This document shows positions 421-41,353 of a stretch of DNA of 41,353 bases, in pieces. Source of the DNA: a virus. The position numbers were made by a program, and so were the translations under genes. Under the pieces are notes generated by a model. The model had not been told where the DNA came from and made no database searches. It saw only the letters and a program-made list of their open reading frames with translations. Each line of letters opens with the position of its first letter. The first letter of the stretch is position 1. The stretch is from UHGV virus genome UHGV-0007119. One strand, 5' to 3'.

Positions 421-470
421 AGCCGCAGTATCCTATCATGACAAGTTACTGCGGCTTTTTATATTTAACG
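421..470 (+). terminator. Intrinsic terminator, candidate sib/tI-like element
   Basis: Perfect 10-bp stem AGCCGCAGTA / TACTGCGGCT (421-430, 447-456), 16-nt loop, then TTTTTATATTT on the plus strand; same strand as int, on the P-arm side of the att core. Confidence 0.45.
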
Positions 471-579
471 GCTCAACAGCCAGATCAGCGGGCACACCAC
501 CAACGGCATAGAAAAATCCATCAGGCTTGCCATATCCCACGCACGTGCTGACATCCTCCATACCATGCAGAACGGGGTT

Positions 580-2730
580 TTACGGCGCACTGGATAAAAT
601 AGACTTCGTCTTCGTAACAATAACATCTACAAAATCACCTGCAGATATAGCTGATGGTACTGTATCTGCAAGAGTAATCTTTCCTGAAGAGATGTTTTGC
701 ACATCTAATAATTTATTTTCAACCCCATCCGTATATACCAATTTGACATCACTGAATGGAGGGTAATAAGTGGCTGTTCCTTGGTATACATATATTTCAC
801 TGCCTGAAATTGATTTCACTACATACCTGCCCCTTACAAGATTAATTTTGATTTCAGATAAATCGGTTTTATAACAGGTAATTCCTGAACCAATGTTAGC
901 CATACTAATATCAGTATCACTATAATAAGTAATTGCTTTTCCTTGTTTTAAGGTGAAGTTATCTTTTCTTTTCCTTGGCAAGGATGTGCTATTTTTGTAA
1001 TATCTACCAGTTAAGCATAGCCATGAAAATGCAGTATTCGCTACATTACCACCAGAATACACAGCTAAACGAATTGCACTAACTGGAACCCCTTCATTAT
1101 TAATCCTGATCTTAATGGAAGAAATGTTAGCAACAGTAGCATATCTATGGTTAGATGAATCCCATTGCATAGAAGAAGTTATTGCTTCTGTTTGTGAAGT
1201 TATGACATTCCCATCTCCATCTAATGCATACAGGTAAATGCGAAACGATGCCGTATCTGCTGAGAATGTAAACATATCACCATTTCTTACTGGTACATCT
1301 CCAGATTCCCATAACAACCCAAAATTCCGCATAAAAGCAAACTTAGAAGAAACCAGGTGACGGATATTATATAAACCATCTACATCTGTTTGATATGCTA
1401 ATACACCAACTTCTCCATTGTTGGCACTGGATATAAATGGGGTGTTAGCATTTAAAGAAAACAATGTTACTTCATCGGATATATTTTCCTGAACATGAAA
1501 TACTGCATTCCCCTTGCCATTATCAGTTACCTCTACATAAGTGTAAGGTGATGGATTGTATGGTTCATTTGTATAGTAAGGAGAACTTAACCATGAAGCC
1601 TCAATTGAGTTATTCCACGTATATTCACCAAAGTTAATTATCAACTGTTGGTTAGTTATGGATGATGGATATCGTTCAAAACGAAACCCGTAGAAGTAAT
1701 TGTTATCACCTCTTTGAATATCAATTTTACCTGCCCCCTCCATAGTTCCACCATAAAACTTATTGTGGTTATGATGATATGGATTATCAGCGAAAATGAT
1801 ATTATTCGTACGATTCAGATAAAAATAGTTTTCATTTATCCATCCTTTCTCAACTCCAAGAAAATGAATTGTATCGACCTTTTTCAGGTTAAAGGTTGAG
1901 TATGCTATTGAATAATCCGTCGATGCCACCGAAGCATTATAATTTGCATATAACTGTAAGTAGTCGCAACGCTCAATGTTAATATGCTGCCCTTTTGCCC
2001 CGATAATACGAATATCCGGTGTCGTTTCAGATGAAATACCAGAATTTCTGATAATCGTTCCGAAGTTTTGTCTTGGGTTGTTAGGGTTTGATGCATTCCC
2101 GCCAAGCAATACCCCTATTCCTGAGTGGGATATGGTAAAAACAGCATTGGTCATTTCGAGGCTGACATTACGAAGATTTAATGTCTCCGTAATAATAAAA
2201 TTACCTTCCGCTCGTAATGTTCTGGATGATTCTCGTGCATATTCTGCAGCCAAGATCAATGCAGATGTGTCATCTGTTATACCATCGCCTTTTGCCCCCC
2301 ACCCTCTTACATCACAATCGTCCCTCCACCGAGATATCTGCAATTCAGGATATTTTTTAGCTCCATCCGGGTCTTCTAATTGCTGCCGTAGTTGATCAGG
2401 GTCATACTTCAGCACATTAGGAAAATAAAACTGCTGAGTGCCATATGCATCATATACAGCCATAGAATGGCCTTGCACAGTTACGAATTTGGCAATCTGC
2501 CCGTTATATACCGGATATCCAGCAGCGTTAATGATGATTGGTTGCGAAACGGGAACATGAGAGCCGTCTTCGTTCTCCACATAAACCTGAATCTGGTTTT
2601 CAGGATTTACCGGGTCAGTGTCAATTTTTCCGATATAAATTTTGCCATTGGCAACCGCTTTAAAAGAACGCGCCATAGTGAAGAGTTGCGAAGGCATCGA
2701 TACGATCACATTGGCTGTAATGTCTGTCAT
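580..2730 (-). CDS. Tailspike protein: P22-type N-terminal head-binding domain, divergent beta-helix receptor-binding domain
   Basis: 716 aa; first ~110 aa ([11 protein letters not shown]…NVLKYDPDQ) match the remembered P22 gp9 head-binding domain; the rest is unrelated with a [13 protein letters not shown] pectate-lyase-like motif and lower GC. Confidence 0.9.
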
Positions 2731-2830
2731 TTAATTTGCTCCAGATACAATGAATCGCCGCAGCGTGGCCACGGTGAATTTTGGGCATAAAAAAACCCAG
2801 CCGAAGCTGGGTCGTTGCGTTGGTTATCTG

Positions 2831-3766
2831 TCAGTAGTTATGTACTGAAGGAGGTAATTCTTTATTCTTAAGTCTCATCCATGCGGAAAGATTCTTTGGT
2901 CCGTCTGGCTCATTGATATCAACATCTCGTGTGTGATTGATTAAAACGTCTCTCGCCATTCCGATAACATACGAGAACTCATGACCGTAGTCGTAGCATC
3001 TGCCGGAATAGTTCGATTGAATTTGTTTTAATGCCGGATACAGTTCGCGGAATAATGCCTGTGAGCGGTTGGCATAATCCCATAACCATACAAGGCTGTT
3101 TGCTTCTTTTGCAGAAAGCTCGTTGGTTTTCTTCTCTTGTTTGCCAATGAACTCACCTTCAAGCGGAACGCGAGCAGCAAGTGACAGTGCTTCGGTAAAC
3201 TGCTCCTCACTGATTTCTTTGTACGAACATCCAAAATGGGATTTCAGTGACGACCACATGGTGATCATCGCCTTAGCCTGTTTTTCCTTTGGCAGAGACT
3301 GACCGCGACTCATGACGAGTTGTTTAATGGCTTCCTGCTGTTCAGTGGTGATTTTACCCGGCAACGTCTTTTTAGCTTTGCGTGGGTTAACTACATGGCC
3401 TTTAGTCCAGTAGTCATACAGCACGCTAAAGCATTCCTCCTGGTACTGAATCAGTTTATCACGGATGTCAGCACGAACTTTCTCAGGGTTGATGCTGAAC
3501 AGCCATCCATTTAACTTCTTCAAAGGAAGGCAGAGTAGCTTACGAAGCTTCCCATCAGCGGCAACCATGTTCATATGAACACAGTTGAATTTGCTAATCT
3601 GCTTCATGAGTTTTGTTTGCTGCGTTGACCAGCTCATTCCAAGGTTTTCAACGATTGGCTTCATCGCAACGTATGCAACTCCGGCAGCCATGGCGGTGAT
3701 AATTTGCTGACCGTTGAATGGTACGTAAGAGGTGTTCACTGCTTCTAAAATTGCTATACTATTCAT
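2831..3766 (-). CDS. ant: Antirepressor Ant (P22 immI type)
   Basis: Start at internal Met ([21 protein letters not shown]…) preceded by GGAGAAAAACCAAC; sits directly downstream of arc as in P22 immI. Confidence 0.85.
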
Positions 3767-3834
3767 GTTGGTTTTTCTCCACGGATTTACTGACAACCGA
3801 AGCCCTGACTGTTCCCGCAGTTGGGGCTTCAACT

Positions 3835-3996
3835 TTACGCGCCAATGCGCCCTTCCTTCTTAAAGCTTTCCATTACTCTCTGATAAATCTCAGAGTTAAC
3901 AGACCGACCATTCTCTTCCGCCACCTTGCGTACCAAATCCAATACTTCTTTAGGCCACCGCAAATTGAACTGCGGCATCTTGCTCATTCCTTTCAT
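3835..3996 (-). CDS. arc: Arc repressor
   Basis: 53 aa from internal Met: [53 protein letters not shown], essentially the remembered P22 Arc. Confidence 0.9.
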
Positions 3997-4086
3997 ATTC
4001 ACCTCACAATATAGGTCCACCGTGGACCTATTGAGAATATAGTAGAGTGCTTCTATCATGTCAATACACTAACTTGGAGTGATGGC
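3997..4086. promoter_or_regulatory. immI control region (divergent Pant/Pmnt) with Mnt and Arc operators
   Basis: 17-bp palindrome AGGTCCACCGTGGACCT at 4013-4029 (Mnt operator type); ATAGTAGAGTGCTTCTATCAT at 4039-4059 is the reverse complement of the remembered Arc operator. Confidence 0.75.
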
Positions 4087-4338
4087 ATGGCTAGAGATGA
4101 TCCGCACTTTAACTTCCGTATGCCTATGGAAGTAAGGGAGAAATTAAAATTCAGGGCGGAGGCGAATGGGAGATCAATGAACTCCGAGTTGTTACAAATC
4201 GTCCAAGATGCTCTATCAAAACCATCGCCTGTGACTGGATATCGCGACGATGCAGAACGACTCGCTGATGAGCAGTCAGAGCTTGTTAAGAAGATGGTGT
4301 TTGATACGCTGAAGGATTTGTACAAAAAACCCACCTGA
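4087..4338 (+). CDS. mnt: Mnt repressor
   Basis: 83 aa, MARDDPHFNFRMPMEVREKLKFRAEANGRSMNSELLQIVQDAL…, near-identical to remembered P22 Mnt. Confidence 0.9.
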   Translation: MARDDPHFNFRMPMEVREKLKFRAEANGRSMNSELLQIVQDALSKPSPVTGYRDDAERLADEQSELVKKMVFDTLKDLYKKPT

Positions 4339-4354: not shown

Positions 4355-4774
4355 TTAGTCTTGCTTTGTTGATGGTATAAGAGATGCGTTTGCCTCTTTT
4401 GGCTTCAAGGTATACATTCCACCATTAAATGGATCTACAGCAAGCCAACCAATTAACCCACCAAACACAAGGTTCCCACCAATATACCAACCATTAGCAT
4501 TGGCTTTGATTGGCAGGGTAACTGGTTCATACCCATCCTTCTCCATAGTGATCTGGTAGCTCTTTTTGCCAAAATAGCTACCATCTGACTTGGCGAGCGT
4601 TACACCTTGTGGGGTCTTACCTTGCGCAACAATCACACCTGACTCATCTTTTACCTTAAAGCTCGCGCCAGAAGGATTGCTGTTCACTTGCACAAGTTGC
4701 GTTTCATCACCAACAATAGTTGCGCACCCAGATAACATGATAACGCCAGCAACGACGCTAATAATCCTCTTCAT
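4355..4774 (-). CDS. Lipoprotein of unknown function (moron at the P22 sieA position)
   Basis: Start at internal Met MKRIISVVAGVIMLSGC: signal peptide plus lipobox LSGC; glycine-rich C-terminal segment; AT-rich relative to neighbours. Confidence 0.7.
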   Translation of the reverse strand: MKRIISVVAGVIMLSGCATIVGDETQLVQVNSNPSGASFKVKDESGVIVAQGKTPQGVTLAKSDGSYFGKKSYQITMEKDGYEPVTLPIKANANGWYIGGNLVFGGLIGWLAVDPFNGGMYTLKPKEANASLIPSTKQD

Positions 4775-4892
4775 ATCAATTTCCATATTTAAAAAAAACG
4801 GAAACATCCTAATGACAAATCATTCAAATGTGAAGTAGGCAAAAGATGTTTACTTTTTTCATGGTATCCTGCTCAAAACTAAGGAGGTTGGT

Positions 4893-5216
4893 GTGTATAC
4901 AACAGTTATCGTGATAGCTATCGCACTCATTGTGGTTCAGTACCAACTGGCATCTTTAAAACAAAAGATATCTGACCTCAAGACTGAGAACGAAGCACTT
5001 AAAAACTCAATAAAAGATGAGAAGAACAAACTATCATTCACTATATCTGATATTGAGCAATCCATTGAAATTATTGAGAATAATATTAACAGACTAAAAA
5101 AAGAAGATATTCATGAAATCAATGACAATATCAAGGGTTTGAAATCTTGGCTTAGGAATGTAGGGCAAATCGCCACATCAACACGAGATAAGCTCAATCC
5201 ATCCATGGATGATTAA
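4893..5216 (+). CDS. Small membrane-anchored coiled-coil protein, unknown function
   Basis: GTG start 5 nt after AGGAGG (4882-4887); N-terminal hydrophobic helix (YTTVIVIAIALIVV) then heptad-like charged region; divergent from the lipoprotein gene; AT-rich. Confidence 0.55.
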   Translation: MYTTVIVIAIALIVVQYQLASLKQKISDLKTENEALKNSIKDEKNKLSFTISDIEQSIEIIENNINRLKKEDIHEINDNIKGLKSWLRNVGQIATSTRDKLNPSMDD

Positions 5217-40302: not shown

Positions 40303-41353
40303 GCGCCGGGATTTACCCCCTAACCTTTATATAAGAAACAATGGATATTACTGCTACAGGGACCCAAGGACGGGTAAAGAGTTTGGATTAGGCCGAGACA
40401 GGAGGATAGCAATCACTGAAGCAATACAGGCCAATATTGAGTTACTCTCAGACAGCGGACGCAAATCACTGATAGACAGAATTAAAGGCGCTGACTCAAT
40501 CACTCTTCATGTGTGGCTTGACCGATATGAAACAATTCTCAGCGAGAGGGGCATCAGACCGAAAACTCTACTCGACTACGCCAGCAAAATCAGGGCAATC
40601 CGAAGAAAATTGCCGGACAAACCGCTCGCTGACATATCAACGAAAGAGGTGGCAGCAATGCTAAACACCTACGTAGCAGAAGGTAAAGCGGCTTCCGCAA
40701 AATTAATCAGGTCAACCCTTGTTGACGTTTTTCGTGAGGCAATAGCCGAGGGGCATGTAGCAACGAATCCGGTAACAGCAACCCGTACAGCAAAGTCAGA
40801 AGTAAGGCGCTCAAGGCTGACAGCTAATGAGTATGTCGAGATTTACCATGCAGCCGAACCTCTCCCTATCTGGCTAAGGCTGGCGATGGATTTGGCCGTC
40901 GTTACAGGACAGAGAGTCGGCGATTTGTGCAGAATGAAATGGTCAGACATAAACGACAACCATCTTCACATTGAACAGAGTAAAACAGGGGCTAAACTCG
41001 CCATTCCGCTAACGCTAACGATTGACGCGCTCAATATCTCATTGACTGATACACTACAGAAATGCAGGGAGGCCAGCAGCAGTGAAACTATAATCGCATC
41101 AAAGCATCACGATCCGCTTTCCCCGAAAACAGTATCAAAGTATTTTACAAAGGCGAGAAATGCATCTGGACTCTCATTTGATGGAAACCCACCAACATTC
41201 CATGAACTGCGTAGCCTGTCAGCGAGGCTATACCGGAACCAGATTGGCGATAAGTTTGCTCAACGTCTTCTCGGGCATAAATCAGATTCAATGGCGGCGC
41301 GGTATAGGGACAGCCGTGGACGGGAATGGGACAAAATTGAAATCGACAAATGA
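40280..41353 (+). CDS. int: Tyrosine integrase (lambda Int family)
   Basis: 357 aa; first 55 residues identical to remembered lambda Int arm-binding domain; remainder related but diverged; catalytic …HELRSLSARLY… region conserved. Confidence 0.95.
   Translation: MGRRRSHERRDLPPNLYIRNNGYYCYRDPRTGKEFGLGRDRRIAITEAIQANIELLSDSGRKSLIDRIKGADSITLHVWLDRYETILSERGIRPKTLLDYASKIRAIRRKLPDKPLADISTKEVAAMLNTYVAEGKAASAKLIRSTLVDVFREAIAEGHVATNPVTATRTAKSEVRRSRLTANEYVEIYHAAEPLPIWLRLAMDLAVVTGQRVGDLCRMKWSDINDNHLHIEQSKTGAKLAIPLTLTIDALNISLTDTLQKCREASSSETIIASKHHDPLSPKTVSKYFTKARNASGLSFDGNPPTFHELRSLSARLYRNQIGDKFAQRLLGHKSDSMAARYRDSRGREWDKIEIDK

Follow-up and report, generated by a model that had tools for sequence, protein, structure and literature searches.

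A P22-type prophage tailspike with a Dep-ORF8-family module predicted to target K4-type capsules of Escherichia coli

UHGV-0007119 is a virus genome of 41,353 nucleotides that was analyzed over its whole length (hereafter the window) and is a complete HK620/CUS-3-like, P22-type Escherichia coli prophage. Its tailspike gene (580..2730, minus strand), a single open reading frame (ORF) with an ATG start that encodes 716 amino acids in the ORF listing, joins a P22-type head-binding domain to a C-terminal module unrelated in sequence to P22 gp9. The module belongs to phrog_18162 of the PHROGs database (E = 0; residues 135-712 against profile positions 216-800), together with the Pasteurella multocida phage depolymerase Dep-ORF8, and among E. 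coli genomes it is associated with K4-like capsule loci. The protein is probably a depolymerase tailspike of a P22-like prophage, with a module of the phrog_18162/Dep-ORF8 family, for K4-type capsules with a chondroitin backbone. A cluster of 716-amino-acid proteins 97% identical to it (P0001) has 143 member sequences, the module clusters P0001, P0004 and P0010 have more than 500 in total, and the copy in E. coli AST20 is named 'phage head-binding domain-containing protein' in RefSeq.

Analysis of 5,426 complete E. coli genomes revealed module DNA in 17. Genes of the kfoC family were present in 70 of the 5,426 genomes (1.3% background) and in 16 of the 17 carriers, compared with a chance expectation of 0.22 (Fisher P = 1.6e-30, kinship ignored); when the carriers were collapsed to 7 independent units the association had P = 2.6e-11. 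Nine carriers possessed the locus type of AST20, which was found in 18 genomes, and four possessed a second K4-like type with an extra pyruvyl-transferase-family gene (about 28 genomes). Canonical K4 architecture, with an IS3-family element, was seen in two carriers and 20 genomes, and a unique locus with a 57%-identical KfoC homolog in S87 alone. The feature common to the carrier loci was a KfoC polymerase together with Ugd. The remaining carrier, W46, is one of 5,356 genomes with no kfoC-family gene, and is the exception to a CUS-3-type pattern, seen in the other 16, of lysogens that carry the cognate capsule locus. An allele of the module that is 63% identical (P0010) was found only in N1131 and 20AR0300 among the complete genomes, both of which have K4-like loci. 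The P0010-type allele matched four places in 20AR0300 (NZ_CP195498.1), annotated once as a head-binding-domain protein and otherwise as hypothetical, which suggests that this strain holds several prophages with the same receptor module. Gladstone et al. 2026 independently described KL4 together with a group of similar K4-like loci, and among bloodstream isolates such loci are recognised as a cluster (PMC13171598). The original prediction for this gene held that the receptor, and with it the host serotype, cannot be read from the sequence; this is true of the sequence by itself, but comparative genomics predicts a K4 or K4-like chondroitin-type capsule, not an O antigen.

The capsule genes of AST20 form a group 2 kps locus on the pheV island. 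Region 2 of this locus encodes a GT2 protein, a UDP-sugar dehydrogenase, a 689-amino-acid GT2 protein, a 589-amino-acid protein and a GalE epimerase. The 689-amino-acid protein matched the solved K4 chondroitin synthase KfoC (2z86) with 1129 bits and was 73% identical to KfoC of the canonical K4-type locus in 23CRST013. The five genes (kfoG-, kfoF-, kfoC-, kfoB- and kfoA-like; L005, 28033-36145) are without the kfoD, HAD, kfoE and small-GT2 genes and the insertion sequence (IS) element of the canonical K4 locus, and an unbranched chondroitin is therefore predicted. Region 2 of the AST20 type was identified at 99.9% identity or more in 18 genomes that represent at least two O types. K5/heparosan was considered as a target and rejected, as region 2 of AST20 has no kfi gene set but genes for an epimerase and a polymerase of the KfoC type. 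The S87 region 2 (L007, NZ_CM151376.1; 11001-17545) was unique to one of the 5,426 genomes and encodes a GT2 protein, Ugd, a 690-amino-acid KfoC-family polymerase (57% identical to K4 KfoC) and an unknown protein of 499 amino acids; this locus may specify a different glycosaminoglycan-like capsule.

Most studied P22-type tailspikes target O antigens. We therefore weighed the alternative that the module is an O-antigen depolymerase, as in P22, Sf6 and HK620, and that the K4-like link is a by-product of clonal structure. The P22-type relatives of the protein in the Protein Data Bank (PDB) also act on O antigens, three of the carriers share O166, the O antigen of AST20, and the association test ignores phylogeny. 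However, just 3 of the 17 carriers have O166, and all 12 O166 genomes that lack a K4-like locus also lack the module; O166 was rejected as the receptor on these counts. AST20 and PS_131_S11 each have two module copies, one in a P22-type protein and one in a 771-amino-acid protein of another prophage, and the two strains share a capsule locus and both module versions but differ in O antigen, with PS_131_S11 having an O antigen of the O17/O44/O73/O77/O106 family. The prophage of the 771-amino-acid tailspike is podovirus-like, encodes a T7 gp14-family core protein and lies near yfgI. Carriers varied in O antigen, prophage backbone and integration site; the P22-like carriers were integrated at torT (the window and AST20), argW (W46) and beside dacD (MS14385), in addition to the second prophage family. 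The association was seen again with two alleles and two prophage families, at three or more integration sites and with three types of K4-like locus. Together with the action of Dep-ORF8, the sole characterised relative, on capsule, these data make an O-antigen depolymerase highly improbable. In AST20 (L012, 41650-42662), the O166 O-antigen cluster ends with a galE gene that carries a frameshift according to its annotation, and the GalE/KfoA-like epimerase gene of the capsule locus is intact.

The relationship to Dep-ORF8 provides a second line of evidence for a capsule depolymerase. Thirty homologs of the module were identified (34-98% identity). The relatives in annotated phages included Vectrevirus PDP21P3/P6 (48% identity) and the tail fibres of the P. 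multocida phages PHB02, Pmp1, Pa7, ZA29 and F108, which matched at 30% identity over residues 133-711 (E ~1e-67). The PHB02 match lies in gp17, which is Dep-ORF8, and is homologous over essentially the whole module. Recombinant Dep-ORF8 (109.6 kDa) produced translucent spots on 31 of 31 type A strains and none on capsule-deficient mutants, and the purified protein strips the capsule and makes cells serum-sensitive (PMC6090149). The paper on the type D-specific phage PHB01 places the gp17 differences at the C-terminus only. The host of Pmp1 is recorded as capsular serotype A. The type A capsule of P. multocida is hyaluronan, which differs from chondroitin only at C4 of the hexosamine and has the same alternating pattern of glucuronic acid (GlcA) and N-acetylhexosamine (HexNAc), GlcA-beta1,3-HexNAc-beta1,4. 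Because hyaluronan has the C4 epimer pattern of chondroitin, a glycosaminoglycan-type substrate fits the homology to Dep-ORF8. In contrast to the tailspike, Dep-ORF8 has 968 amino acids and a T7-type N-terminal adaptor, and belongs to a lytic Autographiviridae phage of another host family; at 30% identity its substrate may differ from that of the tailspike.

No family in Pfam or NCBIfam, and no curated CAZy-type model, matched the module. Searches against the sequences of solved structures, with the single sequence and with a 25-sequence profile, matched nothing past the linker and the first rungs of the helix. Neither K5 lyase nor hyaluronate lyase (HylP) structures were among the matches listed by sequence or by fold in a comparison of the catalytic region. 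It is conceivable, although we hold this only tentatively, that the module founds a sequence family of beta-helix enzymes that degrade glycosaminoglycans, with chondroitin as the substrate of the E. coli phage members and hyaluronan as that of the Pasteurella phage members. Such a family would show no kinship to the known phage hyaluronate or K5 lyases or to curated glycosidase or lyase models and might also cut the identical mammalian polymers, and the AST20-type locus would then specify a plain chondroitin capsule tracked by these prophages. A scan of species-representative genomes with one peptide pattern identified three loci only, in [Haemophilus] felis, Actinobacillus ureae and Pigmentiphaga kullae. 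The chromosomal copies in [Haemophilus] felis CCUG 31170 (L016) and A. ureae ATCC 25976 (L017) were 34-35% identical to the module over nearly its full length, and presumably lie in prophages.

The fold of the module was examined by structure prediction. A full-length AlphaFold model had a predicted local distance difference test (pLDDT) score below 50 for residues 1-136, which lowered the fold scores, and the module was then modelled alone. The monomer model of residues 134-716, built with 32 homologs, had a pLDDT of 88.6 and a predicted template modelling score (pTM) of 0.75, and predicts a right-handed parallel beta-helix. The best PDB matches by Foldseek were the right-handed beta-helix tailspikes DpK2, K2-2 TSP, Depo32, Det7 and CBA120 TSP4, which are depolymerases of capsule or O antigen (probability 1.0, template modelling (TM) score 0.26-0.35, 10-12% identity). 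Foldseek also matched the plant polygalacturonase ADPG2 with a probability of 1.0, and TM scores across the beta-helix matches were 0.2-0.35; with this model Sf6 was found at E ~1e-3 and P22 was absent from the best 50 matches. Since TM scores did not exceed 0.35 and identity was 10-12%, the matches support the fold class only and no catalytic mechanism can be transferred; cleavage by hydrolysis and by beta-elimination are about evenly balanced. On the basis of the model, Foldseek and the alignments, the predicted beta-helix with its putative catalytic groove spans residues ~145-430 (1441..2298, minus strand; the boundary at ~430 is approximate). The model secondary structure places one or more beta-rich C-terminal domains at residues ~431-716 (583..1440, minus strand), which might serve trimer assembly or extra glycan binding; this part was the most divergent region in allele P0010.

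Alignments of 25 and 32 sequences revealed invariant columns at K246, Q248, S274, Y277, W297-E300, R307, Y318, H320, N321, N323, E331, R350 and E352. E300 lies in the context WINEN, H320 in YxHNHNKF, and R350 and E352 in RFER. These residues are spaced roughly one rung apart along the predicted beta-helix, which suggests a catalytic groove. They also bear on the possibility that the module is a non-catalytic capsule-binding fibre with no depolymerisation. In favor of this possibility, the catalytic residues are candidates chosen by conservation, and no curated CAZy-type Pfam or NCBIfam match was obtained. However, invariant acidic, basic and histidine residues about one rung apart are typical of catalytic grooves, the structural neighbours are enzymes, and purified Dep-ORF8, a homolog, removes capsule and leaves cells sensitive to serum. 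We therefore consider a purely binding fibre very unlikely.

A K4-type substrate has several points against it. The Foldseek TM scores of the module are low (0.26-0.35, at 10-12% identity). The activity of Dep-ORF8 was demonstrated by spot tests and serum assays, not by chemistry, and the cleaved bond was not named (PMC6090149). The S87 locus is without a GalE/KfoA epimerase gene, and for the AST20-type and second-type loci a chondroitin product is predicted from the genes present. The association test was made without phylogenetic correction and some carriers are near-clonal (100117/100248 and the O166 strains); the K types considered are those of the carrier genomes. The substrate is deduced from lysogen genotype and from a 30%-identical relative, not from enzymology of the E. 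coli homologs. Finally, W46, whose module is 96.7% identical, has a non-kfoC region 2 of the CDP-glycerol glycerophosphotransferase type, which is teichoic-acid-like. Vertical inheritance followed by a capsule switch was considered for W46 and was not supported, as MS14385 has an otherwise identical tailspike region at a different integration site.

The W46 locus also favors the alternative that the module targets another glycan or a broader range, such as colanic acid, more than one acidic group 2 capsule or a non-kps structure, with K4-like strains serving as the niche of the prophages. Near-identical modules are found with three K4-like loci that differ in their predicted side-chain genes, and the 30% identity to Dep-ORF8 does not settle specificity. 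Against this stand the KfoC-family loci in 16 of 17 carriers compared with 1.3% background, and the KfoC polymerase and Ugd shared by the carrier loci. To our knowledge, colanic acid and enterobacterial common antigen loci are near-universal in E. coli, and the restricted distribution of the module is therefore not explained by them. Another or broader glycan target is thus unlikely. Modules that are nearly the same (at least 96% identity) accompany three K4-like loci whose side-branch genes differ; this pattern is consistent with a spike that recognises the shared backbone, and we retain the K4-type capsule as the probable target.

We propose a mechanism that follows from the K4-type assignment. 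Residues 1-113 would dock a trimeric spike on the tail hub, as in P22, Sf6 and CUS-3, and the linker (residues 114-144) would lead into an AT-rich module (residues ~145-712) that was probably acquired horizontally and joined by homologous recombination within the 38 nucleotides that encode a 13-residue motif. As primary receptor and substrate we predict the group 2 capsule that the KfoC-type chondroitin polymerases of E. coli K4 and K4-like loci produce, with the backbone -4)-beta-GlcA-(1-3)-beta-GalNAc-(1-, where GalNAc is N-acetylgalactosamine. The invariant residues K246, E300, R307, H320, E331, R350 and E352 would line a groove in which the spike binds and cleaves this capsule, and cleavage would let the virion tunnel to the outer membrane. 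By analogy with CUS-3, a P22-like phage may have been retargeted in this way to a host-mimicking capsule. From the solved tail complexes of P22 and Sf6, whose N-terminal domains are 70-94% identical, six homotrimeric spikes per virion are expected.

The N-terminal domain of the tailspike was assigned by profile, structure and sequence comparisons. Residues 1-113 (2392..2730, minus strand) matched the Pfam family PF09008 (Head_binding) from the first to the last of its 113 profile positions (E = 5.9e-67; 223 bits, with the cutoff at 24), and the identity to CUS-3 likewise marks this region as the P22-type head-binding, or virion attachment, domain. Among PDB sequences the N-terminus matched Sf6 gp14 over residues 1-118 (E = 6e-65), P22 gp9 chains over residues 1-117 (E ~1e-50) and also 1lkt. 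The original prediction of a P22-type head-binding domain in residues 1 to about 110 is upheld, with the refinement that the closest N-terminal relatives are those of CUS-3, HK620 and Sf6 (91-94% identity), compared with roughly 70% for P22 as judged by eye from the alignment. The full-length P22 chains 2xc1_A (666 amino acids) and 8tvr_A aligned solely within residues 1-117, and the endorhamnosidase catalytic domain of gp9 has no sequence homology to the C-terminal 550 residues of the tailspike. Because 2xc1_A aligned just to residues 2-117, there is no alignment to gp9 along the full length, and the rest of the protein is unrelated to gp9 in sequence, as had been claimed. The AT-rich character noted for the module is also real: GC content was 43% for the head-binding domain and 47% for the linker and dropped to 36% over residues 159-716, compared with 46% for the whole window, and third-position GC fell from ~40% to 22-28% in the module.

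To locate the exchange, the two parental homologies of the tailspike gene were compared by blastn. The siaK1 gene of CUS-3 matched nucleotides 1-470 of the gene at 88.5% identity, and the second AST20 copy, the 771-amino-acid tailspike gene of the unrelated prophage, matched nucleotides 433-2137 at 99.2%. The two homologies overlap solely in 38 nucleotides (2261..2298, minus strand), which encode residues 145-157 (G145-L157) at the start of the beta-helix. The 13-residue motif at this position (window 2260-2298) is therefore the shared microhomology where the exchange took place. Upstream of it lies a neck or linker cassette of residues 114-144 (2299..2391, minus strand), delimited by the extents of blastp alignments, and a second boundary exists near residue 114.

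The same C-terminal module was found behind at least four different N-terminal adaptors, namely PF09008, PF18668, PF12571 and a short or absent one. Proteins of 757 amino acids with a PF18668 adaptor aligned over residues 114-711 at 93% identity, and 771-amino-acid proteins with a third N-terminus over residues 134-712 at 97-98%. Alignment of short Vectrevirus-like proteins of 598-600 amino acids began at residue 125-134, and in an Aeromonas salmonicida protein the module lies behind a tail-collar domain (PF12571). Conversely, PF09008 proteins with other C-termini aligned by blastp over residues 1-158 up to 1-214, and proteins named K5 lyase or GH28-related aligned over residues 114-155/158 only, at 69-78% identity. 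With a P22-like context and the canonical gene position, this distribution bears out the modular exchange that had been read from the sequence.

The junction cassette (residues 114-158) was common, at 69-93% identity, to the CUS-3 endosialidase and to tailspikes named as K5 lyase and as GH28-related. Its neck portion, residues 114-144 (2299-2391), was also found in PDB 9vvr and at ~70-78% identity across PF09008 and PF18668 tailspikes with unrelated enzymes, and appears to be an exchange linker of general use in different phage families. The GxxGDGxTDDT N-terminal cap motif of the pectate-lyase superfamily is present at residues 145-157. In a 98%-identical paralog this motif aligned to profile positions 2-25 of PF12708 (pectate-lyase-like), about the first 24 positions of the family, in a match that fell below the threshold (E = 4e-4; 20.6 bits, with the cutoff at 27); the tailspike itself had no PF12708 match at E ≤ 1, and a few distant homologs, such as P0036, carry a precomputed PF12708 match. 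The pectate-lyase-like motif reported for the module is thus where it was said to be, but GAKGDG does not serve as a marker of the catalytic domain, as it sits in a junction cassette of dissimilar tailspikes.

A close parallel to the tailspike is SiaK1 of CUS-3, a K1-specific P22-like prophage of E. coli RS218. The attachment domain and linker are alike (93% amino acid identity over residues 1-158), as are the P22-like genome type (96% nucleotide identity in the morphogenesis genes) and the position of the tailspike gene after ant. The logic is also alike, with a temperate P22-like phage whose target has changed from an O antigen to a group 2 capsule that mimics the host. The two differ past residue 158, where CUS-3 has an endosialidase for polysialic acid and the tailspike has a Dep-ORF8-type beta-helix, and in specificity, K1 for CUS-3 and predicted K4-type here. 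P22 gp9, Sf6 gp14 and HK620 gp9 have in common with it the head-binding domain (E = 1e-50 to 6e-65), the plan of an adaptor followed by a beta-helix and the genomic position. In contrast, these O-antigen endoglycosidases have no sequence similarity to it past residue ~118. Tailspikes named K5 lyase by their sources, such as that of phage UE-S5a, which we take to be of the KflA/ElmA type, are likewise directed at an E. coli capsule that resembles a glycosaminoglycan, heparosan. The junction cassette is common to them and the tailspike over residues 114-155 (74-78%), but the similarity is confined to these 42 residues and the catalytic part is unrelated.

Modular exchange in tailspikes is textbook knowledge, and the enzyme family has one partly characterised member. 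What is new is the predicted K4/chondroitin specificity, the mapped 38-nucleotide crossover motif and the occurrence of one module in two co-resident prophage families. The predicted K4/chondroitin target is apparently undescribed so far; we found no K4-specific phage or depolymerase in the openly accessible literature, a search that did not extend to older or subscription-only work. K4, K1 and K5 are three host-mimicking E. coli capsules linked to invasive disease (PMC10272209), and phage enzymes are already known and used for K1 and K5. If the assignment is correct, the tailspike and its lytic Vectrevirus relatives would offer a reagent for K4 typing and decapsulation and a candidate tool for cutting microbial chondroitin. 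The case also illustrates how, within a single host, a motif of 38 nucleotides allows prophages that are not related to exchange their capsule specificity.

The remainder of the window fits a prophage of the HK620/CUS-3 group, with the integrase end at 41353. The structural and morphogenesis genes are ~95-96% identical in nucleotide sequence to those of HK620 and CUS-3, and vB_EcoP-611R6 is similarly related (~95%). The gene order is mnt-arc-ant-tailspike, with the tailspike in the canonical, P22-like position after ant. The antirepressor gene ant (2831..3832, minus strand; Pfam P22_AR_N E = 9e-45, P22_AR_C E = 6e-30) lies directly upstream of the tailspike gene as in P22, and Arc- and Mnt-like ORFs (3835-4059 and 4087-4338) lie upstream of both. 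A consensus scan identified a terminator-like hairpin with a T-run (2794..2813, minus strand) between ant and the tailspike start, in the stretch that in CUS-3 bears the annotation 'bsq1', a boundary sequence. The same prophage adjoins torT in E. coli AST20, and bases 1-699 of the window match that junction at 99%.

A conserved hydrophobic ORF of 94-95 amino acids was identified directly downstream of the tailspike in other carriers of both prophage families, with intact copies at L003 11686-11970, L008 5677-5964 and L015 1788-2072; no Pfam or NCBIfam family was found for it. The window retains a degenerate remnant of this small membrane-protein gene (465..626, minus strand), detected by tblastn, which overlaps the 3' end of the tailspike gene; the 95-amino-acid ORF of W46 matched the window at 545-471 with 52% identity over 25 amino acids (E = 4e-6). 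The ORF seems to travel with the module. The interval from the immI region to the DNA-transfer genes holds two further ORFs. One (4355-4807, minus strand) encodes a predicted 150-amino-acid lipoprotein that had no Pfam match, and in related prophages the RefSeq name for this interval is 'peptidase associated/transthyretin-like domain-containing protein'. The other (4893-5216, plus strand) encodes a coiled-coil protein of 107 amino acids. Both are possible superinfection-exclusion or moron genes.

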